Virus record (IMG/VR): IMGVR_UViG_3300032332_001787
Location: 166,098-230,097 of that record
From: a virus
Taxonomy: Duplodnaviria; Caudoviricetes
DNA length: 64,000 nt
Reading direction: 5' to 3' (one strand)
The translations under genes and the position numbers were made by a program. Below the pieces are notes generated by a model. It searched no databases. It was not told where the DNA came from and worked only from the letters and a program-made list of their open reading frames with translations. Of this stretch, positions 8,234-35,877 are shown one piece after another (positions within the stretch are counted from its first letter, which is position 1; each line of letters starts with the position of its first letter).

Positions 8234-8269
8234 ATTTTTAATCCTAAATATTGTCTTAAATAAGATAAT

Positions 8270-12650: not shown

Positions 12651-15600
12651 TTATCTACGTTTACCAACAGCACCTTCTGTATCTCTATGCAGATCACCCA
12701 TTGCTGCATTAACTTCCGATAGAACTATTTTTCTTATTGATTCATCCATTAATGCCAAATATTGTGCTCCATTAAAGTTAACATTAACATTATGTTCACC
12801 CTTCAAATTAATAACAGGATTGATATTTTTTAATTGGTCAATAAAGCTCTGGAATGTTGCGGTAAACTGGCTTAATCCATCAGTATTTGGAGAAGCTGAT
12901 CCACCACCAGTAGATACACCACCGCCACCACCAGTTTCATCTGTTGGTTGACCTCCACGGTAGAGATAATTAACTTTACCGACCTGACCACCATTAGCAT
13001 ATCGATTATTATTAATAGCTTGTAATAATGGTAGATTTCTTTGTGTAGAAGTTCTATTGACTACAAATTCGCCGGGAGTTAACATGGCGGGAACTGTATC
13101 TGTTCCTCTGGAAATTGGTGTGAAGGGGAGTATATTTCCTCCAGCAGCAGCATATACCATGCCTCCATATCTTTTGTTTACCGGCTCTTTCTCTGGTGGC
13201 TTATCAGCTCCTTTCTCAGGAGTAGGTGGTGTTCCAGCTACCGCACCAGTACCAGCAGCTTGTGTACCTCCTTGTCCTATATCTGCACGGAATTCTGGAT
13301 ATTTCTGAGCTAGACTCACCCAGGCTTCATGTATTGCTTTAGCTTCGGACATAGCAGCTTCTTGTCCTTTTAATAATTGCAATATATTAATATCACCAAT
13401 TTTTGTATTTACAGCTAGCTGATTACCTTTTAGTGTTGCATATGCTGAAGAGGCATTACTATATACTCCTGTTAAATAATCTACTCGTTTTTTGTCTTGT
13501 GTAAATTGTGTTTTTGCTGCATTATAACGAGCATCAGCATCTAATTTACTCCATACATCATTATATTTCTTTTCTAGGTCACCAGAACTGATGTTTGAGA
13601 AAGCTGAAGAATCCAAAGCCTCAAATAATGTTTTGTTTGATTCTGCTTGTTGTTTAATAGTTAATATTAATTGACCAGCTGGACTTTGAGATAATGCTTT
13701 ATCTCTTTGAGCAGTTTCTCCGCCAGCTGCAAGATAGACTACTCCGCCTTTACTATATGCTTTGGTTTGTCCATTATTAATAGCTTTTAATAAAGGAAGA
13801 TTAGCTTGAGTAGCTGATCTATTAACAACAAACTCTCCCGGTGTCAACATTGCTGGAACAGTATCTGTACCTTTTGGTTCATAAGGAATTAACATGCCAT
13901 TACTAGCATATACAATTCCTCCGGTAGACATTTGTTTTGGCTTAAGTGATAATGGGCCTTCTACTTTTTCAGTATTACCAATAACAAAATATCTATAATC
14001 ATCAGGCAATATACCATCCACACCACTATCATTTTTTTGCTTAATCTCTTTAGCTTTGACCTCTGTATAATAAAGACGACGACCATTAGGAGTATTTATA
14101 TTTTCTGCTGATATTGATTTTATATTAACACTATCTCCACCCATGCCTTTGATGATACTATGTGAACTAATGATATTTTTAATATCTTTAACAAAAGTTT
14201 CTATGTCTCCTATTGGTTCTACATCTTTACCTTTAATAAAATCCCATTCTGCTTTGGCCATAGTATTTGTTTCAAACAATTCACTTAATGAAATACCTAA
14301 TTTTTGAGCTTCATTTTTAACTTTCTCTTCAATTTGAGCTATAAATTCTGTCTTCATTATTCTCAATTTTTCTCTGATATTATCAGCTAATTCAATAGCT
14401 TGCTCTTGCCTGGGCTTATTTTGAATAATTTCGTTTAGATAAGTTTGTCTTTGTTTATCAAATTTTTCATATTCTTCTATTTTTTGTTTATTAGCAGTAT
14501 CTCTAGCTTCTTTTTCTTTTTTAATTTTTTCATCTGTTTTTACTTCTTCTCCTACGGTTTCATATTTACCAGTTTCTTTATTTTTTATTGTTTTTTCTAC
14601 TCTCCTAACTCCTTTAGATTCTCTATCTTTTATATTTTGTTTTATTTTATCAGCATAGGCTGGATTATATTGCGCTCCCACAATATCACTCAAATCTATT
14701 TGTATTTGTGACAAAACATTATCAAAAGCACGACCACCCTCTGCTAAATATACAACTCCTCCAGTTGCATACTGTTTGGTCCCACCGCTATTGATAGACT
14801 TTAATAAAGATAGATTAGCTTTAGTTGCTTTAGCATTAACAACAAATTCACCAGGAGTAAGCATTGCGGGAATTGTGTCTGTTCCTCGTGGTTGGAAATT
14901 AACTAAAGTACCCTCTGAAGCATATACTATGCCTCCGGTATACATTCTACGAGGAGAGTTTTGTCCTTTATAGCTTACAGAGCTTGTTGTTTTTTGACCC
15001 TTTGCATACTTATCTCCTTTACCTATATTTTGATGATAGTTATATTCTCCTAAAATTCTACGATAGTACTTATATGAATTCTGGTACTGAGTTTCTATTC
15101 CACTCATACCTCTAACTTTTTGGTCAGAATCCATTCTTGCTTCTCTAACTTGTTTGCCGCTATATCCCCCTTCTGGTGGAGAAACTTCTTTTCCTTCAGC
15201 ATTTGTTCTAATGAAAGGTTTGTCAAACTGATCAAGAATAGAATCATTTATCTTAGTAAGAGGCTCTCCTTTTGCCAAAACTTCACTATAGTAGTTAGTC
15301 TTTAAGGTTTGTAATTTACCTACCATATCATCTATATTAACAAGAATATCTTGTTTTTCTCCTATCATTATAGATCTATTACCGGTTTTAGATAGATTGA
15401 TTAATTTGCTTAATTCAGTCAAACTAGTAATAGCTGCTCCATAACTGGTCTGCATAATTCCTAAAGTTTTTTTGCTGGTTTGTTGAGTAGCCTCATCTGG
15501 ACTTTCAATTAATTTTAGTTGATTATAATCAGACAATTCTTTAAAAGCATTATTAGTTTCTCCATATATAGAACCAGCTAATCTAGTGATTTCTAATTGG

Positions 15601-18600
15601 TCAGATGCTCCCTCATTAATTTGTTTTTCGTCGCCCAATAAATTTTTTGGTCTTCTTGTGTCATAAGCTGTAACACGAATATTATTTCTAGAGTCTGTTT
15701 TATCATTAGTATAGAATGCAGGAGTAATAAATTTATTCTTTATGGGTTGTTCCGGAGATTTACCCGATGAAATTAAAGATGCTAAATATTCTTTATATGT
15801 TAATTCATCATAATAATCTAGTTTGCTATTATTTGCTGCTGGAATCATTATAGCAGAAAATGGCTCTTTACTTCCATCAGATCCTTCCTGAGCAGAAAAT
15901 TCTGTAACAGGATTTTCGGACTTAGGCATTTGTGGCTTTGCTTGTTTCTCGTCCGGTCTTTGTAATGGTCGTGCTGCTGGTATACTTCTTTGACTTTGGC
16001 GTGCTGCTAATATATCTCTAACCACAAAAGCTGTTTGAGTTAAGCCATTGATACTAGCAAATCTACCTCTCTTGGGTTTTACAACAACATCGTCCAGTTG
16101 TTTCCTAATCTGTGCCAAGTCGTCTGGTTTTATACCATATTGATGAGCTACGTCATCTAATATTTGCTGTCTTTTTGCGGCTGCTGCTGGGTTGCTCGGT
16201 GTCGCATTAAGGATATCATATTCTTTATTGAAATAATCATCAAACATCTTGTTGGCATCTAGTTTGCTAAAATCACCACTAACATCTATTCCTAATCTAG
16301 CGAATGTTTCTTTAGTCTGTGCTTGTGCGGCAATGTAAAGAGGTGAATTATCTGTGAGTTTTGTTAAGAGAGCTGGATCAATGTAGTCTGGACTAGATTT
16401 CAATAAATCATCAAAATGAAATTGAGCTGCTTTAGATCGTACGTCTCCTAATGTCTGTAGAGCAGAAGCAACATCACCAACAGCTAATGAATCATATTTT
16501 CTTTTTATTGCAATATTATACGCGTCACCAATATTACTATTGAATTTACTTTGAATTTCTGCTAATCTTTCTAATGCAGCCGGAGCGACAGATCTTGCTG
16601 TTCGTCTACGGTTATAATCTTCAACAGCATCTCCAATTTTTTGTCTTATAGAACGCCTACCACCAACTACTTTTCTAGAATTTGAACCAGCTTGACTTCC
16701 TAAATCATCTGCGAATTTAGCAACAGCATTTTCTGGAGGTATAACATCTGATCCAACAGCCATCAATCTAGTTAAGCTTGAATCGCCAGATTTTATAGCT
16801 TCTGCTACTACTTGTTTCGATAATTTTTTAGTTGTTATAGTCGCTACTGCTTTACTGATAGCATTATCAGCAACTGAACCACCAGCAATTTCTGCAGCAA
16901 ATCCTGTCCATTGTCCAGCCGCATATGCTTCTGGATTTTTCTTAATTTTTTCTTCTATATCTGTTTTCATAGAAGATGGAAGCATTTTATAAATTTCTTG
17001 ATTTAGGTATTGCCCCAATTGATCACCAGCTAATCCACCGGCTACTGCTCCACCAACGCCGACAACAGGACCTGCTATATTACCTGCAATAAATCCTAGA
17101 CCACCCAAACCTAAGCTTAGAAGACCTGGGATTGCTTTGCTTGCTATACCATAACCAAAAGCTTTCCAATCCCAATTCATAGGCTTAAAGCCTAGTGTTT
17201 GCTTTTGTATAAGAGCTTCTCTATCTATAGTACCTTGAGTAAATGGATAATTAGGATCTCCACTATAAAATTGTTCTTCTAGTGTATTACGAGATATTTT
17301 TCTATCACCGTATTTGATCTTATTAGCTGCTTCATAAGTTTGTATAAACTCTAGACTACTAGTTCCTAGTTTCTGTTTTTGAGGATCAAGCTTAGCATAT
17401 TTAGTCTTAGCCGCAGCAGATAAATATTCTTGTATATGATGATCGTATGCAGCATTATAACTATCTAATTCTTGAACACTGATTTTACCATCTTTATTTC
17501 CTCTAAAATCAAGATAGTCAAATATTGTTCCTTTTGCTGTATATTCTTTATCGTCTAAAACACCATCTTTATTAGTATCATATCCATTAAAATATTTTGC
17601 TCTATCCATTGGCATAAAGTCTTTTTTAACAGTTAAACCGCCTCTAGCTAAATAATTAACAATTCCCCCAGTAGAATAATGATTTCCGTTATTAATAGCT
17701 TTGAGCAGTGGTAAGTTTTTCTGTGTTGCTTCTCTGTTGATTACAAACTCTCCGGGAGTTAGCATAGCCGGAACAGTATCTGTACCTCGTGGTTGAAAAT
17801 TAACCATTTGTCCGTTCGCTGCATATATCATGCCACCATTTGCTCTCATTTGTGGCTCAGCCATTTGTCGTGCCTCAAACCATTCGGCCGATGGTAGCTG
17901 TCCGTATTTTGCAGAAACGCCTAGTTGTGAGTTAGCAAGATTAGCATTGTCTCTGACTTGATCAGCACGGCCACTCTTTATGGCTTGAATTACAGCATCA
18001 GTTCTGTCTTTTTCTGGTAGATTCTTATCATAAAAATAATCTTGTCCTGGCCAGCCAACTATTCCACCAGAATACCATGTTAGTAATGAACCTAGTGCAT
18101 TATCTATATATGATGCTGTTTGTGGATCATAAAATGGCATACCCAAAGAATCTTTACCTTGAGATATGTCTGTTCTAAGCTTACTAATAATATTTCTTCT
18201 AGTATCAATATTTGTAAATTCGTTATATGGATTTAATCCAAGATCAACAAGTTCTGCATAAGTTTTTGGTACTTGATTTGTAAAGTCTTCATAGGTTAAA
18301 GATCCATCAGCTCCAATAGTTCTAATTTTTGATCCTTTAAGAGATTGTCCTAAAGTTGCTTTAAAATCTGATGATAGTTCTCTACTTGCTGCTTTTTGGA
18401 AATTTGCTGAGGCCCCTAACGATCTGAATAATGATTCCATATCGCCATTATCAAGCAAAGTTTTAATAAATCTAGTATTACCACCAGCAATACCACCAAA
18501 AGCACTAGTGGCTCCTGCTAGAAGACCATACGCCTCTTTAATAGAATTATACTGCTGCGGACTACGAGCCATATAAAACAAGCGACTAGCATATGCTCCA

Positions 18601-21600
18601 GCCTCATTAAATACATTACTAGCATATGCTGCTGCCTGCTTGCCCATATCATCGTCTTTTAAAGGACGAGCACCAAATCCGGGAACTCCTCTTAAATATC
18701 TAAAGGCCCAGCCGCTACCAAAACCTGGAATTTTTCTACGACCAAAAACCCCCAAAGCTCCTTTTGCTAGTTTTTGAACAGTGTCTTTAATCTCTCCTGG
18801 ATTACCACCAATAATATCTGCTAGCTGATTAGGATTATCTATGCTTTTAGCTGCCCTAGTAGCAGTATTTTTAGTAGCAGAACTAAGATCTTTAATTGCA
18901 TTAATTAACCAATCTCCTACTTCTAGATTGGCTCCTCTGGGTATAACGTCATTAAAAATAAGACTATTCATTGCGTCCGGAGCATTTGAAGCCAAGCCTA
19001 AAGCATTAGAAAATGATATAATATCATTGGCTTTGATTTGTTTAGATAAATTATCTTGTTTAGTTTGGTCATTATTAATTAAAGCATTATAATACTGATC
19101 TAATAAAGGAATAGCTTGAACTTTATTTAATAGATCCCCTGGAGTAAATTCTGAGCTATTATAAATTCTCTTCTTGTCAATTTCTAGTTGTTGAAAAATG
19201 TCCAGGGGACTCTTATTTGGTTCTGGAATAAAAATATCTTTTAACTGTCTTGCTGGGTCTTTAGAGAAACTTCTTGTCTTTTCATCCCATAATGGAGCAC
19301 TATACTTCGTATACTCAACTCCATAGTTTAAGTCTAAATTCTTGCCACCAACAGGAATGGATAGTTTGTCCATTTTGAAACCAAGAGATTGCTTCTTGAT
19401 CGGCCCATTTTTCATTTTATTAACAACATCTTCTTTAGCTTTTTCTTCAAAATTCTTTCCTAAAGAATCTAAGTCAATATTCATCATCCATGGAAAATGC
19501 TTGGGTGCTCCACCAGCTACTGTTGATGTTACATCAAAGAGATTATACAATTGCGTCAACTCTTTATTTTTTAATCCTGGATCTTTCTTATCAATAGCAA
19601 ATTGTACTCCATTAGCCTTAGCTTGATCCAAATTTAAACTTTCAACAGTGTCTTGTAGTGTTGAGTTTATGTATGGAGTATTTGGAAAGACAAATAATGT
19701 GCGAGGTTTACCTAATGGAGCAAAAGTTTTTAATAGATCAACTTCTCCCGTTAGGTCTTCGTGACTAGATGTTCCATTATATAAGGCTGAAAATGATTGC
19801 ATCAATTTATCATAACTGCCATTTACAGACTGATCAAACTTTACTCTAGTATCATCAAAATCGAGAGCTTGTGCAATAATATTTTTATTTTCATTGTGTT
19901 TCTCAATTAAAGAGTCAATTTGACTTCTGTTTTTAAGATATTTAGAATCAGGACTATTACTAGAAATACCGGGATAATACAATATATTATATTTAATGGC
20001 TGAAGATGGACCAAATTTTTTCCCAGCATAATCACCGATATCATAAGATGGTTCACTAGCAGATACAGCATCAACATGCCCCATACCAAAATATGTTGAT
20101 GATTGCCAAATTTTATTCATTGGGGCGTTATTAAAATCAACAGATGGTACTGGTGGTGGACTACCAAAATACAAACCAGCCCTATGTCTTATCTTTCCAT
20201 TAGGATTATACTCAGAATGAGTAAGTGTAGATGGCTCAACAGATGATGGAAAATCTCCTATGCTATCTAGTTCATTTCCTAAATTAAGTTTATCCAAAGA
20301 TAATGTTGGATATTTTGCTCTTAGCTTAGTACTATAATTAGCTGCTTCAATTTTAGAAACTTTAGAAACCTCCAAATTTTCTCGACCAACTAATAATTTA
20401 TCTGTTAATATGGGTTTAAATTCAGCTAAGTCTTTTGATGATTTATCTAAGGCAGTATATTTTGCTGTGGTACCACCATCAAATCTATCAGTAACTCTTA
20501 TTGGAGCTGTAACTCCAGCAACAATCTCTCCACTATTGTCCCATATATTATCGGTTTTGAAATCTATAAAACCAAAAGTATTTTTAGGAGTTTTATTTAA
20601 ACCATTTCTTTGTAGTCTAGTAAATATCTGAGGGCCAGCAAGTGCTTTTTCAGAAGCATTGTCTATTAGTTTATTATTTTTGTTTAAGTCTAGATAAGAA
20701 TCTTGTGTTAAGTTAAAATTATCAGAATCTCTAGACGTGGTTTTCATAAAATCACTAACATATCCACCATCAGCATAATAACTAACCTTGCCACCACTAC
20801 TAAATTTATTACTATTGATACTTTGCAATAAAGGAAGATTAGCCTGAGTAGCTGCTCTATTAACCACAAATTCTCCAGGTGTTAACATGGCTGGTACTGT
20901 GTCTGTTCCTTTAGGAGCAAAGTCAACATTCATACCAGCAGCAGCATATATAATTCCTCCTGAAGCTTTTCCAGCAGCCGGAACTGGCTTATCACCCAAT
21001 TTATTTTCGATAGCTTTAACATTTGCAGCAATATCCGATAGTTCTTTGTTTTCAAAAGTGACTTTAGACTTTGTTAAAGCTTCTGCAAGAGCTTCTGCTG
21101 ATTTATTCGCAATTTGTGAAGCTAAATTATTATTAAGCATAGCTAGTTGTTTATTAGCATCTGACTGTGTATTAATAGCCTGTTGATATTGCTGCATTGC
21201 AGCTTGTGTTTCTGGATCAGCTTGTGGATTTCTCAGAGTATTTAAAATCTGTTGAAAAACTGGAGATACTCCCTGGCCAGATTCTTGTAACATGCTTTCT
21301 AAAACATTTGCTTTAATATTATTTGCTTGTTTATTATCTCCTAAAAATGGCATAACATCTTTCAGAGCACTTAAAGTTTCTTTTCTATCATTAGCAAAAG
21401 CAACTTGAGCAGCTTTCATAGCTTCAAATCCTGAAGCCCCATTATTTAATGCTTCAGCATATGCTTTTTGAGCACTTTGAGAATTTTGTATAGTATTAAC
21501 TTGACCCCTAATATTATTTTGTAGTCTACCAAAAGCAGCATTGAGAGAATTAAATTCTTCTGGGGTGCTAGTTACTAGTTTTTCTATAAAACCAACTTTG

Positions 21601-24600
21601 CCCTCATTCTTTTGCTGAGCTTCTTGAATTTTATTCAGAGCCGTCGAAGCAATGTCGGTATTCTCTGCTAAATTTTTTAAAGCATCATAATTTTCTCTTA
21701 ATGCAACATTAGTATTTCTTAAATTATTTTGCATACGAACAAAATCATCAGCTCCTTGTGGACCTCTTTGACGAGCTATGTCTGATGATCCCTCTTGAGC
21801 TTTTCTAGTATTATCTAAACCTAAGATTTGATTAGCTATATCTTGTGGTCTTGTTGGGCCGCCTGTTTGTTGAGCAGTTGTGGCTTCTACATTTCTTCTA
21901 ACATCCGATACATCTATAGTTTTGCCTAAAGTTTTTGCTAATTCTAGCTGTCCATCTGTTAGGATTTGAGTTGACTTTCTCAATTTTTCGTTGGTGTCTA
22001 TTTGAAGATCAGCTAATTCATTCATTCTAGTAGAATAATTATTTAAAGCATTCTGCCAATTTTCCAAAGCTTTGAGAGCGACTTCTTGCGCTCTCTTACT
22101 GCTTTCTATAACTTTAGATAATTGAGGTATTTTTTCCACTAATTGAGTAAAATCGACTTTATCATCTCCACTCTTTCTCATATCTTCTAGAGCTTTAGAT
22201 ACTTCTCCTGATAATTTGCTACTTATATCTGGTGGAAGCTGTAATGAATCTAATTGTTCTTGAACAGCTTTTTGTATAGCAAATCCCATTTTCTCATTAT
22301 TCGATTCTGGATTTTTTCTAATAGTATTATTAATAGTTGATAGTATACTACTCTCTAAATTGCTTCCTATGCTTAATAATCCTTTCATAACATTAGTACT
22401 ACCACTAAACATGCTAGCAGCTTGAGATCTAGCAGAGTTATTTTCTGCTCCAGAATAAGCATTAGGGTTTTGTAGCACATTCATGCTATTTAATGAACCT
22501 GAACCAATTTTAGCTTCACCCTTTAGTGAAGATGAGGCTAAGTCTAGATCTCTAGACATCTGTTCTAGTCCAAAATTAGTTTTATTAATAGACTGTTCCA
22601 TATTCTGAAACATTCTTTCCAAACTACGAGCAAAATTACTAGTTGAATTTTCTAATGATTTCATAGCAGCTTCTCTTTCCGCTATAGCTGCCTGTTTGCG
22701 AATAGCTGCTTCTGCATGCATACCAATAACTAAATCTTGTCTTGCTTTTTTCTCATCTGCTGTTAAATCTATATTATTATTAATAGATTGAATTTGTGCA
22801 TTAACTGACTTATCCGCCATAGCCAAAGAAACAGCAAATTGATTAACATCAGTACCAGCTCCTTTAAATTCTGTAATCAAATCACTAATATTAGCTCCGC
22901 CCTTCGCTTTATTTGTAATTAATTTATTAATATTTTCTGCTACTGGAGTAAATTGTTTCGCAGACTCTTCGGCTCTTCCTGGTATTAAATCTTGCACATA
23001 GCTTGATCTTGTTTGTTCAGCTTGGATATTACCAGTCATTTCACTAGCTTTTTTACCTGCTATCAAATCCTGGATACCTTGAAGTAATCCGCCCTGATTG
23101 CCCATAACCTGACCAAAACCAGTAGATGCAAAATAGGCCCCTATTCCTTTTTTATCCAGAATATCTGCTCTATCGGCAGCAGCAGACTGACTACTAATCC
23201 CTTCTTTTTCATTACTTCCAAAAGAATCTAACATATTCACCCAAAATGTCTTGGCCATTTTACTATTAATATCCATACTAGCTTTAGCCATGTTGGCAGC
23301 TTCAGCAAGTTTAGATGTTATAGTTCTTTGAATATTAATATCTTTTATATCTTTTTCTAATTTGACAAACTCTAAAGCTGTTTCTTCTAAAGCACTATTT
23401 AATTTATTTTGTATCATCTTTTTCTCAAAAGCCAATGCTGCATTTTTGGCATCAATAAAAGCCTGACCGACAGCAGCAGCAGCAACAGCGGCGACTCCAA
23501 GAGATCCGGCCAATTTACCCAATCCTGGAAGCATATCCTTTACACCTCCTCCAATCATAGCCCCAGTAGCTAGCATATTAGTGCCACCTTGCAATCCAGC
23601 TGATAACTGAGCATTGCTGGAACTACTTTCAGCATTAATATTTTGAGCTATTAAACTGCCTATCATCTGAACACCAAAAGCAGCACCCATCATGCCTTGT
23701 CCACTCATTCTACCACCGGATCCTGGACCACCAGAACCCCTAGTTTCATTTAGTGTTGCTCTTCTAGTATCAGCTTCTTGTTTAGCTAATCTACGAGCTT
23801 CTTGTAAAATTCTATTTCTGTCTCCACCAAAACGTCCCTCTGCTGTGAGTTGTGTTCTTAATTCGCCTCTTCTTCTAGCTTCAAAGGCTCGGTTCATTTG
23901 CTCAAATGTTCTTGGATCTCCCATAGCAGTATTAATATATTGTCTAAGGTCATTACCGCTTAGCCCTGCTGTCTGTGTTGGTGATAATCCTGCTGTTCGA
24001 GCTGCTCTTCCATATGAAACGCTTTCTGCTCGTCTCATAAAATTTTCATCAACTTCACCTCCCCTTGCTTGACGTCTTTGAACCATAGCTTGTAAATTTT
24101 GCTGTGCGTTATGATCTATTGTTTCTAATTGACGGCCACTAACTCCGGATAATTGTCTTTGAGCCCTGACTTGAGTTGCTGCTTGCTGTCTCATATTAGC
24201 AAGTCTTGTTTCAGCTTCTATAACAGTTTGCATCGGAGCACCAGAAACTCTTAATCTTAAAATATCAGCTTCATATGCATTGATAGCTGCTCTAGAACTA
24301 ATTTGTCCACCTTTGCGAATAATTTCAGCAGATGATGATGATGTTACTCCTAATTGAGTTAATGCTTCTGTTATTTCATTTAATTGAGTAACCACACCAT
24401 CTGTAATGCGAACATTCTCTAAAGAAGCTTGTGCTCCTGGTCTAGCTGGCACTCTTGGACCACCACCTAAGAAAAATCTTTGAACAGCTCCACCAGATGA
24501 GAATTGTTGAACACCAATAGCACCGCCATCACTAAGTCCTAAAGCTTTTGTTGCAGCTGCGCGAATTATGAAGCTACCTACTGGTAAACCTATTGGCCCA

Positions 24601-27600
24601 ATACTATCGCTAGTTCCTGTTCCCGGACCTTTAAAAACACTAATGCCTCCACCAGCAAATGATCTCATGCCATTACGATCTGCCCGATTCATTTGTCTTA
24701 ATTTAGAATATCCTATATTTTTTGCTAACTCTGGAGGAACATAAGCTTCTCCAGAGCTAACTAGTGCTGGAACAGTATCAGTTGCGTCTCCTCCAGTTGA
24801 ATATCCCTTAACATTTTTAAGATAAGTAACAATGTTGTCTTTTATGGTTGATGGACCAGCTAGTGTTCTTTTAACATCAGTTGGTATATTAGGAGGTAGT
24901 TTTGGTTCAAATTTTTGTGAGACTCTACCAAGCCCAGTCATAAAATCAAATCCATTACCCTTTGGTGATCCTACTGCTCCTAGTCTTCTTATAAATGCTT
25001 CTAATAAATTGCCTTTAAGTGATTCTATATTTTCTAATGATTGTGTGTTTTCTTTTAATTTTTTAACTCCTCTATATCTATAAACATCAATTCCTTCATC
25101 GGCTCTTTGTTTAGCAGCGTTTATGTTTCTTTTGTCGTCGTCAACAAAAATAGATCCTGGAGTTAGTTCTGCCGCTTTTAGCTTGGCAATATCTGATCCC
25201 GAAACGGTGGGACCGCCCAACCCTTTAAATTGACTATCTGTTATTGGTAAGCCTTTACTGCTTAACCATGTTTGAATTAAGGGGAGCGTTGCTTTTGGTC
25301 TAGCTGTTATTACTCGTATATTTTTTAATAGCTCTGGTTTTTTACCTACTAAAGAAACTAATTGACGACCTAGTACGCTTAATTTGGCTTTACCCAGAGC
25401 CTCAGTTACTTTGGGAATATCAGAGAATTCACTAAATCTTGGTTTTTTGGGATCTGCTAAAATTTTATCAGCACCAAAAGCTAATGTTCTATCGAAATCC
25501 AGAGCTAATTCTCTACCAGACTCAAATCCACTTAATACTGATCTGACCTTTTTCTTTTGATAAATTATTTCTGCTCTTTTTTCTTTTTTAGCCTGTGCCA
25601 TTGGTATAGTATCAACAGCCTTATCAAAACTAGAATCTATACTACTAGCTCTTTTTTGATTTTTATATACTCCACTATAAATGCTAACAGTATGTTGTTT
25701 ATTTGGATCTTTTAATTTGCTGTCTTGTATAGTTTGAATTACTGGCTGGGCTGCAAATGCACTGCCAAATAGTCCAGCAGCACCAAATACTAATCCTTTA
25801 GCTGTTGCTTTATTTTGTTTTCTTGTTTGACTAGCTTCTTTTTTGCTTGCTAATGCAGCTTTTTGTTTAGTAAATTCTGCTATAATAGCAGCTTTGCTTG
25901 CTGCTTGTTGTGGGGTCGGTGTTCGCTTATTTAGCGTTGTATATACTTCTGTGGCGCTAATACCTCCAATAGCCCCAGCTTTTTCTGCTCCTAATAATTT
26001 TATAATCTCTTGTGTTGTAGCAGGTTTACCGGTTGTTGGGGTTACTATTCCAGCATCAACAAATTTACGAATATAACCACCAGAAGATTTACCTAGTCTC
26101 TCAAGCTTGGTAAGCATTCTAGCTGGTCTTCGTCCCAAGATAGCTTCATCCGTGTCTCTCTGCGCCCTTAAATCTTTAACTCTATTTGCAACATCGGTTG
26201 GTGTTTTTGCAGTAACTCGACTAGGCAGTGTCGATAGTTCAGCAAGGGTTGATGAGTATCTTCCTGCTCTTCCTTTTCTTTTTTGGGCATTTTCTTGAAT
26301 TCTTGCAAGAATACTGTCTAGTAATTTTGGCCTTTTTTGTAACGTAGCCATATAAGGTTTTAAATAAGCTATGCCTTCTGGAGTAAGAAGTTTTTTCATA
26401 GCTTCGATATCATTACTCATAATGGCTGCTCTGGCAGCAGTGCCACTAATGCCGTCTCTAGCTATTTGCATTGGTTCATAACCCTGTGAGCGATATCTGT
26501 CCATGGTAGTAGATGGCTTATCATCGCCCATATACGCAATGTTCTTTTTATTTGGATTTGGAACGATATAAGAATCATCTCCAACTTTAAAAACATTAGG
26601 AATAGAACCCGGAGCATTCCCTTTTGGCGCAGCAGAGACATTAAACCCTTTTGCTCCAAATACTTTTTGAGCCATTCCTACTCTTGAAGGTCCACTGGAT
26701 GATGTTTGGGGTAAAATTGCTGTTCTTTCTGTTTGATCATCTCTCTTGAAAGGGTCTACAGGAGTATTTCCAGAAACGTATATCACAGTATCTTCTGGTC
26801 TAATCTTACTTTTCTTTGCTCCCTGCATTACTGCTTTCACATGGCCAGCTGTTGTTGGTCCTAAATTACCAGAAAAGACTGCTGTTTTCTCTGGAGTTCT
26901 TACTGTTGGTTGATTAGTTCGTTTTTTACTAAAGTTAGGACCAATAGCATATGTTACAATTTTTTTTTGATCGATTCCAGAAACTTCTTTAGCTGCCATA
27001 TAAGCTTCACCAGCACCACTATCCAAAGAAGCTCCTTTAGTAGCTCCTGCTTTTCTTCCAAACAAACCGACACCAGTTAAGTCCCTGCTTTTACGATTCT
27101 CAATTAATACATTTTGAGATTCTTGAGTTCTAGATGATAAGTTGATAATTCTATCTGATTGAGTTAAAAACGCTTTTTGATTTGGTCCAACAACAGAAGT
27201 TGAGTCAATTATGCTATCTGATCGTAAAATATCTGCTTCTGTTAGAATTGGATATCTGTTAGTTTTGCGTAATTTTGCATTATCTGCTTCTTTTGCTCTT
27301 GCTCCACCTTGAATAAAAGTGCTCTTACCAGAACCAGCAACTCCATATACTGTGCTTAATTTCCCTAAATCTCCAGACTGTCTTCTCATAGCAGCCATAC
27401 TAGATAGATGTGATTTATATTTATGCACATCTGTGATCTTCAATCTTTCCATTTCTTTTCTAACAATATCCATATTAGATGAATCATTTAGAATATCTCC
27501 ATCTATATATCCAATATTGCGAATAGCAGTACCTCCAACTGCAAATTTTTGAATTTTTCCACCAAAACTAAGTTTATACTTGCCTTGTTTTTTTAACCAT

Positions 27601-30239
27601 GAAATATAATCCGATTTATATCCATTTACATCTTTCATGTCAGATCCATGGATAAGATTAATAGTTCCTAAATTTATAGTATCTATAGAATTTTTATTTG
27701 GGCGATTCTCTTTAAATCCTAAAGATCTGTATGGAGTATTTTCTAGCCTATATCTTATTAATTTACCAAGTATTTCGTTATCGCTTGTAGAGCCAGATTT
27801 AAATTTAACCTCATAAATATTTTTACCTTTAATAATATCTATAGGAGCATTACTAATATCACTATATCCATTTGCTCCACCGTATTTCTTTGCTCCTTTG
27901 CCCATTCTTTGTCTAACTAAATCTTCCATTACTGAACCGCTTATAGCATCAAATTTGCCTCTACTAGATGATCCCTTTAGTCCTATGGGAAATTTAATTC
28001 CATTTCTCTCTAATCTATTTGTAATCTTAGGATAATCTTTATCTTGAAAACCATAATCCTCAAATGTCTTTTTTTGAATATTTGCAAAAACCCTGTCATC
28101 ATTCTCTATGAACTTTTCAGATTGGTTTTGAAAAGTTTTAATTCTTTGTCCATTATCTGATCTTTTAGTTAAACTACTTAGTAATACTGGTTGAGTTAAA
28201 CCTCCTGAATTTAATCTTTGTAGGTTACCAACGCCAATAGCTTTTACCGCTGGTTTGCTCATGACAAACTCACCAGGAGTTAATTTTGCAGAAACCGTGT
28301 CTCCGTTACCAAAACCAGGAACGTAGCCTCCAGAAGCAAAGTGTCTAATGGGTCCACCTTCAGCAGCTCTTTGTCCCGGTCCAACACCCCTAAAACCTCT
28401 TCCGAAACCACCAGCAAACTGAGTAACAGCCTGAGCCCCTCTGAGAGCAGCAAATAAACCAAGTAATGGAACAAGCCCCTTAGCTGCATCAGCAACTTTA
28501 ATTAAGGCGCTAGCAAGATCTAGTCCTACTTTAACGATATTTTGAAAACTATCTGTATTTCCTATGCTACGAATTAATGCTAAAAATTCTTGTCTGACTT
28601 TTGCTATTTGAACTGCTAATGCCTGTTGTCCTTTAGCAGCATCTACAGCTAATGAACCTTGTCCTTCTTGGGCAACTTTTAATGCTTCTTGAGCAGTGCC
28701 GAACTGTTGAATAAGTGGTAGAACTTTACCAATCTGGCGGAAACCACCAAGTTCTTCGACTATAGAACTAAATTTCAGATCTCTAGGATCTAATTTGCCC
28801 AAACCTTCGCTAAGTCTTTGTACTGCTATATAAGGCCCAACGAATTTACCTTCTAAATCTGTCAATGTTACACCAAATTCTTTAAGAGCTTCGATAGTAT
28901 CTGCTCTTTGAATTCTGGTAAAAATTGTTCTTAAGCCAGTAGCAATAGTTTCTGCGCTTTCACGAGTTGTGGCTCGTATACTAGTAAATACAGATATGAA
29001 TTCATTTAAGGCTTGGGTTCCTTCGCTGACTCCTCTGCTAGAAGCTGCAAACACACCACCAGTACGTTGAATAGCTGTTATAATATCACTAGCTTCAACA
29101 GCAAATTTAGCCGATACTGCGTTGATGGAACCTAAGGCATTTTCTAATTGGCTACTACCTATATTAAACTGTCTCATTAGAGCAATAGATCCTTCAACAG
29201 TTTGATTCATGTCATCAAATGACGGAGCTAATGCACTTAGAGCTAATGCTTTTAGAGCTCTTTCAGTATCTTTAGCTGTTAACCCAGCTTGTGCTAAAGT
29301 TAATGTCGTAGAAGCTAATTCTGTTGATGAAACACCCAAAGAAGTAGATAGTTTATTAATTGTAGATGTAATATCTCCTAGTTTATCTTTAGCGTCACCA
29401 GTTACCTGACTAATTCTTGTAAGCTGTTGATCATATTCAATAAATGCGCTTACTCCATTCTTAAGAGCACTGGTAATACCATACGCCACGCCAGCCACAG
29501 TGCTAAATGCTGCGAAGCGTCTGATAGCTAGTCCTGCTTGTCTTCCGAAATTTTCTATTTCTCCTGTTGCTCCATTAATAGCTTGGCCGGTTCTAGCAGC
29601 ATTATTGCCTATGTTGCCTAAGTTGGTATTAAGTGATTGTAATCTAATGCTAGAAGCAGACCTCATAGCTGCTGCTAAAGCATCTATAGAACTTGCTGCT
29701 GCTGTAGCATTAGTTGCTGTCTGAACCAATAAATTATTAAGTCTTGTTAAATTAGTATTATAGTTATTAAGTGTTTGATTAATACCAGCATTTAATCTTA
29801 CATTAACAGAAACATTCAAATTGCCTAGTTGATTTCTGATTCTCGATCTTATTTGATTAACCGAAGAGGAAGAAACTGAAACTCCTACAGGAACTACTAA
29901 TCCACTTAATTGTTGCTTTATACTTTTACCAGCAGATTTAACAGCAGCTGTGCTAACTCCAATATTAATATTCGCAGATATAGAACTTAGTGCTTTTTTA
30001 ACGTCATTAACTATATTTTTAGTAGAAGTCTGATCAAGTTTGATATTTACATTCCCTGTTATTGTTCCTAGCTGTTTTTTTATCTCAGAAGATATAGATC
30101 TGAGATTGCTTTTATCAAGAACAGGAGTTATTGTTGCTGATACTGATCCTATTTGACGACGAATATCGGACACAACCGCCTTAATATTAGACGGTCCTCT
30201 TAGGTTAAGTTCTGCTGTTAGATTAAATCCTTTTGCCAT
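12651..30239 (-). CDS. Giant tape measure protein (5862 aa) with embedded enzyme-like cargo domains
   Basis: N-terminal TP901-type TMP core (AFIEYDQQLTRISQVTG...LSTSLGVSSTELA...LAQAG), Ala/Gly-rich helical segments, TMP-typical GTDTVPAMLTPGEFV motifs, and position after the tube and chaperone genes. Confidence 0.9.
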   Translation of the reverse strand: MAKGFNLTAELNLRGPSNIKAVVSDIRRQIGSVSATITPVLDKSNLRSISSEIKKQLGTITGNVNIKLDQTSTKNIVNDVKKALSSISANINIGVSTAAVKSAGKSIKQQLSGLVVPVGVSVSSSSVNQIRSRIRNQLGNLNVSVNVRLNAGINQTLNNYNTNLTRLNNLLVQTATNATAAASSIDALAAAMRSASSIRLQSLNTNLGNIGNNAARTGQAINGATGEIENFGRQAGLAIRRFAAFSTVAGVAYGITSALKNGVSAFIEYDQQLTRISQVTGDAKDKLGDITSTINKLSTSLGVSSTELASTTLTLAQAGLTAKDTERALKALALSALAPSFDDMNQTVEGSIALMRQFNIGSSQLENALGSINAVSAKFAVEASDIITAIQRTGGVFAASSRGVSEGTQALNEFISVFTSIRATTRESAETIATGLRTIFTRIQRADTIEALKEFGVTLTDLEGKFVGPYIAVQRLSEGLGKLDPRDLKFSSIVEELGGFRQIGKVLPLIQQFGTAQEALKVAQEGQGSLAVDAAKGQQALAVQIAKVRQEFLALIRSIGNTDSFQNIVKVGLDLASALIKVADAAKGLVPLLGLFAALRGAQAVTQFAGGFGRGFRGVGPGQRAAEGGPIRHFASGGYVPGFGNGDTVSAKLTPGEFVMSKPAVKAIGVGNLQRLNSGGLTQPVLLSSLTKRSDNGQRIKTFQNQSEKFIENDDRVFANIQKKTFEDYGFQDKDYPKITNRLERNGIKFPIGLKGSSSRGKFDAISGSVMEDLVRQRMGKGAKKYGGANGYSDISNAPIDIIKGKNIYEVKFKSGSTSDNEILGKLIRYRLENTPYRSLGFKENRPNKNSIDTINLGTINLIHGSDMKDVNGYKSDYISWLKKQGKYKLSFGGKIQKFAVGGTAIRNIGYIDGDILNDSSNMDIVRKEMERLKITDVHKYKSHLSSMAAMRRQSGDLGKLSTVYGVAGSGKSTFIQGGARAKEADNAKLRKTNRYPILTEADILRSDSIIDSTSVVGPNQKAFLTQSDRIINLSSRTQESQNVLIENRKSRDLTGVGLFGRKAGATKGASLDSGAGEAYMAAKEVSGIDQKKIVTYAIGPNFSKKRTNQPTVRTPEKTAVFSGNLGPTTAGHVKAVMQGAKKSKIRPEDTVIYVSGNTPVDPFKRDDQTERTAILPQTSSSGPSRVGMAQKVFGAKGFNVSAAPKGNAPGSIPNVFKVGDDSYIVPNPNKKNIAYMGDDKPSTTMDRYRSQGYEPMQIARDGISGTAARAAIMSNDIEAMKKLLTPEGIAYLKPYMATLQKRPKLLDSILARIQENAQKRKGRAGRYSSTLAELSTLPSRVTAKTPTDVANRVKDLRAQRDTDEAILGRRPARMLTKLERLGKSSGGYIRKFVDAGIVTPTTGKPATTQEIIKLLGAEKAGAIGGISATEVYTTLNKRTPTPQQAASKAAIIAEFTKQKAALASKKEASQTRKQNKATAKGLVFGAAGLFGSAFAAQPVIQTIQDSKLKDPNKQHTVSIYSGVYKNQKRASSIDSSFDKAVDTIPMAQAKKEKRAEIIYQKKKVRSVLSGFESGRELALDFDRTLAFGADKILADPKKPRFSEFSDIPKVTEALGKAKLSVLGRQLVSLVGKKPELLKNIRVITARPKATLPLIQTWLSSKGLPITDSQFKGLGGPTVSGSDIAKLKAAELTPGSIFVDDDKRNINAAKQRADEGIDVYRYRGVKKLKENTQSLENIESLKGNLLEAFIRRLGAVGSPKGNGFDFMTGLGRVSQKFEPKLPPNIPTDVKRTLAGPSTIKDNIVTYLKNVKGYSTGGDATDTVPALVSSGEAYVPPELAKNIGYSKLRQMNRADRNGMRSFAGGGISVFKGPGTGTSDSIGPIGLPVGSFIIRAAATKALGLSDGGAIGVQQFSSGGAVQRFFLGGGPRVPARPGAQASLENVRITDGVVTQLNEITEALTQLGVTSSSSAEIIRKGGQISSRAAINAYEADILRLRVSGAPMQTVIEAETRLANMRQQAATQVRAQRQLSGVSGRQLETIDHNAQQNLQAMVQRRQARGGEVDENFMRRAESVSYGRAARTAGLSPTQTAGLSGNDLRQYINTAMGDPRTFEQMNRAFEARRRGELRTQLTAEGRFGGDRNRILQEARRLAKQEADTRRATLNETRGSGGPGSGGRMSGQGMMGAAFGVQMIGSLIAQNINAESSSSNAQLSAGLQGGTNMLATGAMIGGGVKDMLPGLGKLAGSLGVAAVAAAAVGQAFIDAKNAALAFEKKMIQNKLNSALEETALEFVKLEKDIKDINIQRTITSKLAEAANMAKASMDINSKMAKTFWVNMLDSFGSNEKEGISSQSAAADRADILDKKGIGAYFASTGFGQVMGNQGGLLQGIQDLIAGKKASEMTGNIQAEQTRSSYVQDLIPGRAEESAKQFTPVAENINKLITNKAKGGANISDLITEFKGAGTDVNQFAVSLAMADKSVNAQIQSINNNIDLTADEKKARQDLVIGMHAEAAIRKQAAIAEREAAMKSLENSTSNFARSLERMFQNMEQSINKTNFGLEQMSRDLDLASSSLKGEAKIGSGSLNSMNVLQNPNAYSGAENNSARSQAASMFSGSTNVMKGLLSIGSNLESSILSTINNTIRKNPESNNEKMGFAIQKAVQEQLDSLQLPPDISSKLSGEVSKALEDMRKSGDDKVDFTQLVEKIPQLSKVIESSKRAQEVALKALENWQNALNNYSTRMNELADLQIDTNEKLRKSTQILTDGQLELAKTLGKTIDVSDVRRNVEATTAQQTGGPTRPQDIANQILGLDNTRKAQEGSSDIARQRGPQGADDFVRMQNNLRNTNVALRENYDALKNLAENTDIASTALNKIQEAQQKNEGKVGFIEKLVTSTPEEFNSLNAAFGRLQNNIRGQVNTIQNSQSAQKAYAEALNNGASGFEAMKAAQVAFANDRKETLSALKDVMPFLGDNKQANNIKANVLESMLQESGQGVSPVFQQILNTLRNPQADPETQAAMQQYQQAINTQSDANKQLAMLNNNLASQIANKSAEALAEALTKSKVTFENKELSDIAANVKAIENKLGDKPVPAAGKASGGIIYAAAGMNVDFAPKGTDTVPAMLTPGEFVVNRAATQANLPLLQSINSNKFSSGGKVSYYADGGYVSDFMKTTSRDSDNFNLTQDSYLDLNKNNKLIDNASEKALAGPQIFTRLQRNGLNKTPKNTFGFIDFKTDNIWDNSGEIVAGVTAPIRVTDRFDGGTTAKYTALDKSSKDLAEFKPILTDKLLVGRENLEVSKVSKIEAANYSTKLRAKYPTLSLDKLNLGNELDSIGDFPSSVEPSTLTHSEYNPNGKIRHRAGLYFGSPPPVPSVDFNNAPMNKIWQSSTYFGMGHVDAVSASEPSYDIGDYAGKKFGPSSAIKYNILYYPGISSNSPDSKYLKNRSQIDSLIEKHNENKNIIAQALDFDDTRVKFDQSVNGSYDKLMQSFSALYNGTSSHEDLTGEVDLLKTFAPLGKPRTLFVFPNTPYINSTLQDTVESLNLDQAKANGVQFAIDKKDPGLKNKELTQLYNLFDVTSTVAGGAPKHFPWMMNIDLDSLGKNFEEKAKEDVVNKMKNGPIKKQSLGFKMDKLSIPVGGKNLDLNYGVEYTKYSAPLWDEKTRSFSKDPARQLKDIFIPEPNKSPLDIFQQLEIDKKRIYNSSEFTPGDLLNKVQAIPLLDQYYNALINNDQTKQDNLSKQIKANDIISFSNALGLASNAPDAMNSLIFNDVIPRGANLEVGDWLINAIKDLSSATKNTATRAAKSIDNPNQLADIIGGNPGEIKDTVQKLAKGALGVFGRRKIPGFGSGWAFRYLRGVPGFGARPLKDDDMGKQAAAYASNVFNEAGAYASRLFYMARSPQQYNSIKEAYGLLAGATSAFGGIAGGNTRFIKTLLDNGDMESLFRSLGASANFQKAASRELSSDFKATLGQSLKGSKIRTIGADGSLTYEDFTNQVPKTYAELVDLGLNPYNEFTNIDTRRNIISKLRTDISQGKDSLGMPFYDPQTASYIDNALGSLLTWYSGGIVGWPGQDYFYDKNLPEKDRTDAVIQAIKSGRADQVRDNANLANSQLGVSAKYGQLPSAEWFEARQMAEPQMRANGGMIYAANGQMVNFQPRGTDTVPAMLTPGEFVINREATQKNLPLLKAINNGNHYSTGGIVNYLARGGLTVKKDFMPMDRAKYFNGYDTNKDGVLDDKEYTAKGTIFDYLDFRGNKDGKISVQELDSYNAAYDHHIQEYLSAAAKTKYAKLDPQKQKLGTSSLEFIQTYEAANKIKYGDRKISRNTLEEQFYSGDPNYPFTQGTIDREALIQKQTLGFKPMNWDWKAFGYGIASKAIPGLLSLGLGGLGFIAGNIAGPVVGVGGAVAGGLAGDQLGQYLNQEIYKMLPSSMKTDIEEKIKKNPEAYAAGQWTGFAAEIAGGSVADNAISKAVATITTKKLSKQVVAEAIKSGDSSLTRLMAVGSDVIPPENAVAKFADDLGSQAGSNSRKVVGGRRSIRQKIGDAVEDYNRRRTARSVAPAALERLAEIQSKFNSNIGDAYNIAIKRKYDSLAVGDVASALQTLGDVRSKAAQFHFDDLLKSSPDYIDPALLTKLTDNSPLYIAAQAQTKETFARLGIDVSGDFSKLDANKMFDDYFNKEYDILNATPSNPAAAAKRQQILDDVAHQYGIKPDDLAQIRKQLDDVVVKPKRGRFASINGLTQTAFVVRDILAARQSQRSIPAARPLQRPDEKQAKPQMPKSENPVTEFSAQEGSDGSKEPFSAIMIPAANNSKLDYYDELTYKEYLASLISSGKSPEQPIKNKFITPAFYTNDKTDSRNNIRVTAYDTRRPKNLLGDEKQINEGASDQLEITRLAGSIYGETNNAFKELSDYNQLKLIESPDEATQQTSKKTLGIMQTSYGAAITSLTELSKLINLSKTGNRSIMIGEKQDILVNIDDMVGKLQTLKTNYYSEVLAKGEPLTKINDSILDQFDKPFIRTNAEGKEVSPPEGGYSGKQVREARMDSDQKVRGMSGIETQYQNSYKYYRRILGEYNYHQNIGKGDKYAKGQKTTSSVSYKGQNSPRRMYTGGIVYASEGTLVNFQPRGTDTIPAMLTPGEFVVNAKATKANLSLLKSINSGGTKQYATGGVVYLAEGGRAFDNVLSQIQIDLSDIVGAQYNPAYADKIKQNIKDRESKGVRRVEKTIKNKETGKYETVGEEVKTDEKIKKEKEARDTANKQKIEEYEKFDKQRQTYLNEIIQNKPRQEQAIELADNIREKLRIMKTEFIAQIEEKVKNEAQKLGISLSELFETNTMAKAEWDFIKGKDVEPIGDIETFVKDIKNIISSHSIIKGMGGDSVNIKSISAENINTPNGRRLYYTEVKAKEIKQKNDSGVDGILPDDYRYFVIGNTEKVEGPLSLKPKQMSTGGIVYASNGMLIPYEPKGTDTVPAMLTPGEFVVNRSATQANLPLLKAINNGQTKAYSKGGVVYLAAGGETAQRDKALSQSPAGQLILTIKQQAESNKTLFEALDSSAFSNISSGDLEKKYNDVWSKLDADARYNAAKTQFTQDKKRVDYLTGVYSNASSAYATLKGNQLAVNTKIGDINILQLLKGQEAAMSEAKAIHEAWVSLAQKYPEFRADIGQGGTQAAGTGAVAGTPPTPEKGADKPPEKEPVNKRYGGMVYAAAGGNILPFTPISRGTDTVPAMLTPGEFVVNRTSTQRNLPLLQAINNNRYANGGQVGKVNYLYRGGQPTDETGGGGGVSTGGGSASPNTDGLSQFTATFQSFIDQLKNINPVINLKGEHNVNVNFNGAQYLALMDESIRKIVLSEVNAAMGDLHRDTEGAVGKRR
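13062..28304 (-). repeat. Eight dispersed copies of the G(T/D)DT(V/I)PAMLTPGEFV TMP module
   Basis: Near-exact copies at about 13062-13106, 13827-13871, 14841-14885, 17742-17786 and 20865-20909. Divergent copies at about 24560-24630, 24738-24785 and 28263-28304. Confidence 0.9.
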
Positions 30240-30327: not shown

Positions 30328-31227
30328 TTAACTAACTGAAGATTCAGCTGTATTGTCCTTGGTTTCTGGTTCCGTAACAGTTTTAGGTTCTGTGGTAGTA
30401 TCATTTAGTTTAGTTTCTTCTGGTTTAGCTTCTTCTAAAACTACTGGTTTTCCTTCTTCGTCCAAAAATGGTTCAGCATCTACAATATAGTCACCCTCTT
30501 GATCTACTAAGTTACCATTCTTATCAACAAAATGACCTTCTTCATTAATGAATCTTCCATTCTCATCAATTAGTCTATTCTCAGAATCTACTAATCTACC
30601 TCGTTTATCAATTAGTCGTAGTTTTTCATCTACAAATTTATATTTCTGCAAGAATTTGTTTTCAGGCAAACCCCTCTCAAAATTATTATCCAATCCGTAA
30701 ATCATACTGGCTAATTTTTGAGCACCTAATAGAGCCACTGGGTCGTCAGCTCTATTTAGATATTCTTCCAAGTTTTTAAAATACGGTTCATTACTATCTT
30801 TATACACCACACAAGCTGATACCAAATAATTAAATCTAGCATTATCAGCTTGACCTTCAGCACTATGATTATCTAGTGAGGTACGAACACTAATTAGGTC
30901 GCGTATTTCTGATCTTACTTCCTTCATTTGTAAAGCAAGATCTTTAGCGTCTTTTAGACCGAATCCACCCTTTGCTAACCTTTTTTCACCATCCAACAAC
31001 TCTTGTTGCAAGGATGTGAACTTGGCCTGTTTTTCTTTATTCCACAGTCCTTGTTCTTCTAAAAGATCATCCATTTTTGCCCTAACAATACTCTTGCTTT
31101 TAATAGCGTCGGTAAAAGCTTGATTATAAGCTTTCTGAGCCTCTCTTTGGTCATTAAGAGACGGTGAACGTACTAGAAAATTCTTTTCGGTTCCATTAAC
31201 TACTGCACTAAAAGTTTCGGTCTTCAT
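30328..31227 (-). CDS. Putative tail assembly chaperone (299 aa) with C-terminal 7-aa repeats and acidic tail
   Basis: Lies between tube and TMP; helical and acidic; begins with a TAC-like 'KNFLVRSPSL' segment. Confidence 0.6.
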   Translation of the reverse strand: MKTETFSAVVNGTEKNFLVRSPSLNDQREAQKAYNQAFTDAIKSKSIVRAKMDDLLEEQGLWNKEKQAKFTSLQQELLDGEKRLAKGGFGLKDAKDLALQMKEVRSEIRDLISVRTSLDNHSAEGQADNARFNYLVSACVVYKDSNEPYFKNLEEYLNRADDPVALLGAQKLASMIYGLDNNFERGLPENKFLQKYKFVDEKLRLIDKRGRLVDSENRLIDENGRFINEEGHFVDKNGNLVDQEGDYIVDAEPFLDEEGKPVVLEEAKPEETKLNDTTTEPKTVTEPETKDNTAESSVS

Positions 31228-31229
31228 AA

Positions 31230-31535
31230 TTAATTGTCCTTCCTGTTTTGGTTATTATTAACCTTAAATGAATAATTATATTGATTTTTAAATACTCCAC
31301 CATACTTATGAAAATCTTCTTTAAGATTTCTCATTTGCTGATTACCATGATTAAGAATTTGATTTCTTGTAAATTCCCAAATATCAGCAAAATATTCTTC
31401 TTTTTCTGTAAGGTCTCCATCTTTATTGTGGCCCCATAGATATCCTAAATTTTCTTCTATGCGAGCTAGTGTTCCTATCATGGTGGTCTCTATTCTTCGT
31501 TCCATATAAAATCGTAATCTTTCTGGATCATACAT
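31230..31535 (-). CDS. Hypothetical protein (101 aa) in the tail chaperone cluster
   Basis: AAGGA SD upstream; tightly packed between its neighbours. Confidence 0.6.
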   Translation of the reverse strand: MYDPERLRFYMERRIETTMIGTLARIEENLGYLWGHNKDGDLTEKEEYFADIWEFTRNQILNHGNQQMRNLKEDFHKYGGVFKNQYNYSFKVNNNQNRKDN

Positions 31536-31545
31536 AATTTATCCT

Positions 31546-32723: not shown

Positions 32724-32743
32724 AAAAATTTCCTTTTGTTCTA

Positions 32744-33778: not shown

Positions 33779-33800
33779 GTTTGGATCTCCAGTTAATTGG

Positions 33801-35875: not shown

Positions 35876-35877
35876 AG

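Follow-up and report, generated by a model that had tools for sequence, protein, structure and literature searches.

The locus described here raises the question of whether the tape measure protein (TMP) of a phage can carry a nuclease and, if so, against which nucleic acid the enzyme would be directed. The DNA belongs to an uncultured freshwater phage, IMG/VR record IMGVR_UViG_3300032332_001787 (230,097 bp, 100% complete by CheckV), and the 64,000-nt stretch analysed, called the window throughout, is the right end of that record (positions 166,098-230,097). The gene in question is the following; positions here and below are those of the window.

12651..30239, minus strand: gene of a giant TMP, P0001, a single open frame of 5,862 amino acids (aa)

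Pfam places PF10145 PhageMin_Tail at aa 293-486 of P0001 (E 1.3e-23, 84.4 bits against a cut-off of 33.2), and the protein is therefore a TMP. With its conserved N-terminal core (aa 291-630) as query, at least 630 giant TMPs of 3.2-10 thousand aa were recovered, and several sources label these relatives TP901-family tape measure proteins. The core is 70-96% identical among relatives; its nearest deposited relatives are the SPbeta-type YomI proteins, at 27-28% identity. A domain that lies behind this core has its catalytic residues intact, and the phage therefore probably injects, along with its genome, an enzyme that cuts nucleic acid.

A preliminary description, made from the letters of the DNA, had proposed that this part of the TMP is a PD-(D/E)xK-like domain with the layout E...D...ExK; the layout present is E...PxD...ExK. 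The peptides that it quoted are present on the minus strand of 12651..30239: MEDLVRQRMG corresponds to aa 771-780 (27900-27929) and PIDIIKGKNIYEVKFK to aa 799-814 (27798-27845, against about 27800-27848 as first given). The linkers named as borders, LNSGG (aa 676-680, 28200-28214), LSFGG (aa 890-894, 27558-27572) and FAVGG (aa 899-903, 27531-27545), do bound the domain. The range assigned to it, 27600-28130 (aa 704-880), lies inside the domain, which is slightly wider when delimited by homology and swap junctions (aa 683-890).

We found the loose pattern E..D..[DE]xK 73 times in P0001, and PxD-x(6-20)-[DE]xK four times. The motif alone is thus not above chance, and the case rests on conservation and predicted fold. 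The frequency of the loose motif would suit a domain whose fold is kept without enzyme activity, as a nucleic-acid binder or a structural spacer, or one that resembles a nuclease by chance, and so would the lack of a sequence family match and the low structural scores given below. We nevertheless regard a domain without catalysis as very unlikely, first of all on account of its conservation.

When aa 680-895 were compared with 1.84 billion representative proteins, seven matches were obtained. Six of them were giant proteins of 4.7-7.3 thousand aa, matched at the same relative position, and the seventh was judged spurious from its own sequence. A second database gave two further homologues and a metagenome scan two loci; homologues of the domain were found solely in giant PF10145 proteins, at the same position. 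In a nine-sequence alignment the residues E712, D715, G768, E772, G788, N797, D801, E810, K812, F813, R829, Y830, E833, E844 and D853 were invariant. Iteration of a hidden Markov model over the 126 relatives in hand, using a core-only profile and a coverage filter, detected the domain in 45 of them, each time directly after the first linker. The same iteration run unfiltered drifted into the linker module, recruiting 121 of 127 proteins, and was discarded. The 45 sequences have a median pairwise identity of 21%, and the sole columns kept in at least 80% of them are D715, G768, E772, D801, E/D810, K812, K826 and G858. Because the columns still conserved at 21% identity are almost solely the catalytic ones, selection appears to act on the catalytic signature while the remainder of the domain drifts. 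A spacer or a binder would not be expected to keep E, D, (E/D)xK and K in this way.

The domain, its parts and its borders are listed below, with counts over the 45 relatives and strand and helix numbers from the model described in the next paragraph.

27570..28193, minus strand: whole nuclease-fold cassette (aa 683-890), from the homology block in relatives, the swap junctions and the AlphaFold model
27969..28193, minus strand: N-terminal subdomain (aa 683-757) with an IExDD motif, containing D715, from alignments
28095-28097, minus strand: D715, kept in 44/45, directly before model strand 37-45
27570..27968, minus strand: putative catalytic core (aa 758-890), alpha-beta-beta-beta-alpha-beta
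27924..27926, minus strand: E772, the glutamate of helix alpha1 (G-x3-E), kept in 44/45, in model helix 80-100
27837..27839, minus strand: D801 of the PxD motif at the start of beta2, D in 44/45 and E in one; strand 123-125 follows model residue 122
27804..27812, minus strand: E810-V-K812, the (D/E)xK motif on beta3, E in 41/45 and D in 4/45, K in 44/45 and R in 1/45, in model strand 128-133
27762..27764, minus strand: K826 on helix alpha2 after beta3, kept in 44/45, in model helix 141-155
28194..28349, minus strand: first linker module (aa 631-682, ...GGYVPGFGNGDTVSAKLTPGEFV...LQRLNSGG), upstream border of the cassette and one of six TPGEF-type modules
27531..27572, minus strand: downstream short linker LSFGGKIQKFAVGG (aa 890-903), lower border of the cassette; in the relative P0014 homology resumes at aa 892, with 71% identity

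The N-terminal subdomain was never seen apart from the core in the relatives searched. For K826 we infer an active-site role. The domain is strongly charged (isoelectric point (pI) 9.75, net +14), and 42 of the 45 homologues have a pI above 8. This fits nucleic-acid binding, though the whole TMP is also basic (pI 9.40), so that a defender of a non-catalytic role could say that the charge of the domain is not special.

An AlphaFold2 model of aa 680-895, based on the nine-sequence alignment, had a mean predicted local distance difference test score (pLDDT) of 88.9 and a predicted TM-score (pTM) of 0.84. It consists of strand 37-45, helices 54-66 and 80-100, strands 104-106, 123-125 and 128-133, helix 141-155, strand 175-185 and helix 195-205. 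In its numbering E772 (residue 93) lies in the long helix, D801 (residue 122) stands where the second core strand begins, E810 (residue 131) and K812 (residue 133) belong to the third core strand, and K826 (residue 147) is part of the helix that comes next. A second, independent model, restricted to the core (aa 758-890, 43 sequences), gave a pLDDT of 86.2 and the same order of elements. The alpha-beta-beta-beta(-alpha-beta) core on which the preliminary description had made its proposal depend was thus found, with D801 starting beta2, E810 and K812 on beta3 and E772 in the preceding helix. As modelled, the domain shows the canonical PD-(D/E)xK arrangement with the catalytic signature on the expected elements, and the original assignment is upheld by conservation together with predicted fold. 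That the fold was predicted twice with high confidence also argues against a mere chance resemblance.

Structural neighbours point in the same direction. Foldseek against the PDB found nothing significant with the whole-domain model (best E 0.3), and trimming to the core was needed; in the structural comparison of the whole-domain model about 27 of 50 rows belonged to the PD-(D/E)xK superfamily. For the core model the best rows, with their scores, were these.

1gef, Hjc: 5.5
5w3i, influenza PA endonuclease: 5.5
6wxw, Card1: 5.2
7ewu, bunyavirus cap-snatching endonuclease: 5.1
3syy, LHK-Exo: 5.1
1y88, AF1548: 5.0
4qbo, VRR_NUC: 5.0

Lower rows included Cas4, McrC, R2 endonuclease, CdiA-CT EC869, MGME1, NucC, FAN1, NucS and Can2, and at least 45 of the 50 rows are, judging by their entry titles, members of the superfamily. 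In Foldseek against the PDB the core model had Hjc ranked first (E 0.08, probability 0.66), and Hjc made up most of the top 20 rows. Matches in the ESM Atlas were to Mrr_cat, PDDEXK_1, DUF4143, Hjc and McrBC (TM-scores up to 0.53), and those in BFVD to phage restriction endonuclease, Hjc, RecU, VRR-NUC and Cas4-like proteins (probability up to 0.97). Each of these scores is weak taken singly; the agreement of independent libraries on the modelled fold is not weak. Language-model features were nearest to Tox-REase-9/3/7/5 and the CDI EC869-like toxin (cosine 0.85-0.91), which we treat as a lead only. Toxin families of the restriction-endonuclease fold are those that the preliminary description had proposed for comparison; none of them gave a Pfam match.

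Several viral and toxin weapons of the PD-(D/E)xK fold act on RNA, and the polymorphic-toxin REase families that lie nearest by language model have mixed targets; the domain could then be an endonuclease for mRNA, tRNA or rRNA. We consider this a serious alternative of rather low probability: the structural rows are tied within 1 Z unit and give no substrate discrimination, and most families of the superfamily cut DNA. Similarly, the presence among the best neighbours of Hjc, Hje, RecU-like, VRR-Nuc and lambda-exonuclease-type enzymes would suit a nuclease that acts on the phage's own genome, holding, trimming or resolving the leading DNA end in an Hjc-like manner, or piloting that end into the cell. 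In every carrier the domain comes first among the cassettes behind the N-terminal core, near the N-terminal, head-proximal end of the TMP and adjacent to the end of the DNA that leads; in lambda this end of the genome occupies the tail tube above gpH* (PMC12617516).

It is the behaviour of the cassette that speaks against the latter. Ten relatives have the domain directly behind the first linker but differ in the cassette that comes after it. In others the domain itself is replaced. P0014 matches P0001 over aa 1-700, departs from it for about 280 aa and is homologous again from the lower border. P0011 is 88.6% identical to P0001 over aa 1-697; an unrelated cassette of about 215 aa follows, and the match is taken up again at aa 1371. 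In P0044 the first slot (aa 580-790) is occupied by a domain of the ADP-ribosyltransferase exoenzyme type (PF03496, 34.1 bits, cut-off 23.4). Cassette exchange at conserved linker borders is thus seen among close relatives, and the domain heads a series of exchangeable enzyme cassettes set between short conserved linker modules. Its presence in just 45 of 126 close relatives, the nearest of which have swapped in unrelated cassettes including the ADP-ribosyltransferase, is unexpected for an essential step of DNA delivery. In addition, with a median identity of 21% against 70-96% for the adjoining core, the domain diverges much faster, as effectors shaped by conflict typically do. An enzyme for the phage's own DNA end is accordingly given only a small share of probability, about the same as an RNA endonuclease. 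That the slot holds a clear enzyme in other relatives is a further point against a non-catalytic role.

The HAD phosphatase cassette occurs in 38 of the 45 carriers of the domain against 30 of 81 non-carriers, and the kinase cassette in 13 of 45 against 36 of 81, counts that ignore shared ancestry. The first of these associations would be in keeping with an RNA target, with the same reservation.

Some further observations on the first slot can be added. The cassette of P0011 (aa 700-915), which also fills the slot of P0013 and P0015, has the conserved stretches THL and YSNMGL[DE]LP.NWN and no Pfam match; by core identity P0011, P0013 and P0015 are the closest relatives of P0001. An apparent homology of P0015 reaching into the N-terminal subdomain proved to be BLAST over-extension, as P0015 has the P0011-type cassette. 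PF03496 is also listed for P0026 in the precomputed domain list, and the first-slot cluster mates of P0044 are P0045, P0113 and P0115. Single-linkage clustering of 260-aa first-slot segments merged nearly everything through the neighbouring cassettes and was uninformative.

We think it fairly probable that the domain is a compact, strongly basic nuclease with a complete catalytic set (E772, D801 and E810-x-K812, together with D715 and K826) that is directed at the host after ejection. The motif, its selective conservation, the predicted fold and the behaviour of the cassette are established here; catalysis, cytoplasmic delivery and the substrate we infer. TMPs fill the tail tube and have to clear it before the genome can follow; cleavage is known for lambda gpH and T5 pb2, and some TMPs are equipped with cell-wall hydrolases (PMC12617516). 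Since a TMP comes out of the tail in advance of the DNA, a few copies of the domain per virion would enter the host, possibly freed by cleavage at the linkers. There the domain would act as a metal-dependent phosphodiesterase on nucleic acid. Its most likely target would be host DNA, or branched or structured DNA, since the minimal core resembles those of Hjc and VRR-Nuc. The neighbouring cassettes (kinase, nucleotidyltransferase and phosphatase, with ADP-ribosyltransferase in relatives) need cytoplasmic substrates, and it can therefore be argued that at least part of the TMP reaches the cytoplasm.

Several points weigh against a host-directed nuclease. Residue placement was judged at the level of secondary-structure elements. 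Three to six folded 24-kDa domains would crowd the roughly 4 nm lumen of a tail tube. Lambda gpH* ends as a periplasmic channel (PMC12617516), so that arrival in the cytoplasm is not given. In sequence searches no relevant match was obtained in Pfam, PHROGs, PADLOC, NCBIfam or the PDB (for Pfam the domain itself, then all 9 and later 43 members; for the PDB a single sequence and two profiles). Finally, nothing was found, by way of DNA modification or immunity, that would protect the DNA of the phage if the enzyme were a non-specific DNase.

This last point concerns the self-protection that the preliminary description had expected, either by modification of the phage DNA or by an immunity gene. 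The expectation was not borne out. Five modification families gave no match in the complete 230-kb genome, namely PF00303 Thymidylat_synt (hydroxymethylase type), PF01555 N6_N4_Mtase, PF02086 D12 (Dam-type), PF00145 C5 DNA_methylase and PF01702 TGT/DpdA. Nor does an immunity gene adjoin the domain, since the next cassette, the kinase, continues in frame and just short mechanical open reading frames overlap. Such an absence suits a structure- or end-specific enzyme of the kind that would work on the phage's own genome; protection may also be dispensable with an enzyme that is structure-specific, that stays inactive while part of the polyprotein or of which few copies are present. Taking the evidence together, we rate a host-directed nuclease as most likely, ahead of two serious rivals, an RNA endonuclease and an enzyme that works on the DNA end of the phage itself; a non-catalytic role is unlikely.

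The searches by sequence also define the domain as a family. The PF01870 Hjc model gave no match in an hmmscan of 9 members at E ≤10, and a six-frame search of the genome at E ≤10 was likewise empty. The Tox-REase models PF15647-PF15650 and the CDI EC869-like PF21111 matched neither the domain nor its relatives in Pfam. No free-standing relatives of 47-270 aa were found by profile search, tblastn placed the domain in none of the 50,697 deposited phage records of INPHARED, and a peptide-pattern scan of IMG/VR confirmed no relative. Because there is no sequence match in the databases and no free-standing homologue was found, aa 683-890 are a new sequence family of the PD-(D/E)xK superfamily, so far confined to giant TMPs.

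P0001 carries further enzyme-like cassettes besides the nuclease fold, namely a P-loop, a HIGH-type nucleotidyltransferase and a DxDxT motif; no peptidase domain was found in it by Pfam. Downstream of the domain and in the same frame are the following segments, all approximate in their aa limits except the last.

26940-27330, minus strand: segment with the Walker A motif GVAGSGKST (P-loop), aa ~970-1100
26085-26940, minus strand: HIGH-like nucleotidyltransferase segment, aa ~1100-1385, with weak matches to PF16581 and phrog_395 cytidyltransferase
25000-25440, minus strand: HAD phosphatase cassette with the DxDxT motif, aa 1601-1760

The linkers of P0001 comprise six long TPGEF-type modules and several short xGG linkers. 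The first module directly precedes the domain and is conserved across all relatives. Within it, 78 bases (28254-28331, aa 637-662) are 80.8% identical to Marine virus AG-345-E08, a marine virus single-cell record, and this was the sole DNA-level match in deposited phage records. As the match falls in the GDTV...TPGEFV module, the module is conserved at the DNA level across distant phages.

The nine genes flanking the TMP gene (30328-36405 and 6614-12625, minus strand) were without a meaningful Pfam or PHROG match, and the tail module is therefore very divergent. The identity of the TMP is thus drawn from P0001 and its relatives, the names of neighbouring genes giving the tail module no independent support. 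An open reading frame at 36796-37746 matches phrog_2295 only, a PHROG of no known function. In the same window there is a second giant open frame of 4,198 aa (46783-59379, minus strand).

Among known proteins, Hjc/Hje (PF01870; PDB 1gef, 2wcw, 1ob8) and VRR-Nuc (PDB 4qbo; FAN1, 5y7g) are closest in fold and minimal core. The domain differs from both in its extra 75-aa N-terminal subdomain with an invariant Asp, and from Hjc, a free dimeric enzyme, in being embedded in a 5,862-aa virion protein. The T6SS (type VI secretion system) effectors TseV, which are of the VRR-Nuc type, are injected and make double-strand breaks in the target cell (PMC9635880). Like the domain, they are small PD-(D/E)xK nucleases on a component of a phage-tail-like injection machine, and they belong to polymorphic effector sets. 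TseV is, however, C-terminal on a PAAR-like carrier with an adjacent DUF3396 immunity gene, whereas the domain is internal to a TMP, has no immunity gene beside it and is unrelated to VRR-Nuc in sequence. With the REase families of polymorphic toxins (Tox-REase-3/5/7/9 and CdiA-CT EC869; PMC3482391; PDB 4g6u), its neighbours by language model, the domain shares cassette exchange at borders; it differs in not being C-terminal, in lacking an immunity gene and in its carrier, which is a virion protein and not a secreted bacterial toxin.

The polyvalent proteins (Iyer et al. 2017, PMC5512222) are very large, contain many enzyme domains and are presumed to arrive in the host together with the DNA and to be processed into pieces. 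P0001 is likewise very large and has several enzyme-like cassettes, and differs in its TMP scaffold and its PD-(D/E)xK nuclease fold; tape measure proteins are never mentioned in that study, and the DNases reported there are ParB-like only. TMPs with enzymatic inserts, such as the peptidoglycan hydrolases of several phages and SPbeta YomI, resemble P0001 in that the scaffold carries a domain acting at or after ejection. T5 pb2C, as cited in PMC12617516, is likewise a functional insert of a TMP scaffold, and the tape-measure-like effector Sle1 of a contractile injection system bears variable functional domains on its carrier (PMC13277306). Known TMP inserts act on the cell wall or membrane, whereas the nucleic-acid enzyme of P0001 would need the cytoplasm. 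Our literature search found no paper describing a nuclease inside a tape measure.

The known tasks of TMPs are to set the length of the tail, to form a channel through the envelope and, in certain phages, to degrade the cell wall. A conserved, catalytically complete nuclease-fold domain within a TMP would extend this role, and the swap for an ADP-ribosyltransferase at the same borders suggests that a TMP can deliver pre-made enzymes to cytoplasmic targets at the first moment of infection. The domain is a new sequence family of a well-studied fold, of which no free-standing relatives were detected among billions of proteins. More tentatively, and at somewhat less than even odds in our estimate, a large clade of uncultured freshwater jumbo phages (at least 630 TMPs of 3-10 thousand residues) may use the TMP as a polymorphic effector train, in which the slot after the N-terminal core alternates between the new PD-(D/E)xK nuclease family, an ADP-ribosyltransferase and other cassettes, swapped at the conserved linker modules. 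These enzymes would reach the cytoplasm before the genome does and there disable the DNA, RNA or defences of the host. If true, this would be a phage counterpart of the T6SS and of polymorphic-toxin systems, one that could dispense with immunity genes, the cell that makes the virions being doomed in any case. The extended role of the TMP would open the questions of how folded enzymes pass the tail tube into the cytoplasm and of what the first molecular events of infection are in abundant uncultured freshwater phages, and the cassettes may be a reservoir of new nucleases and counter-defence tools.

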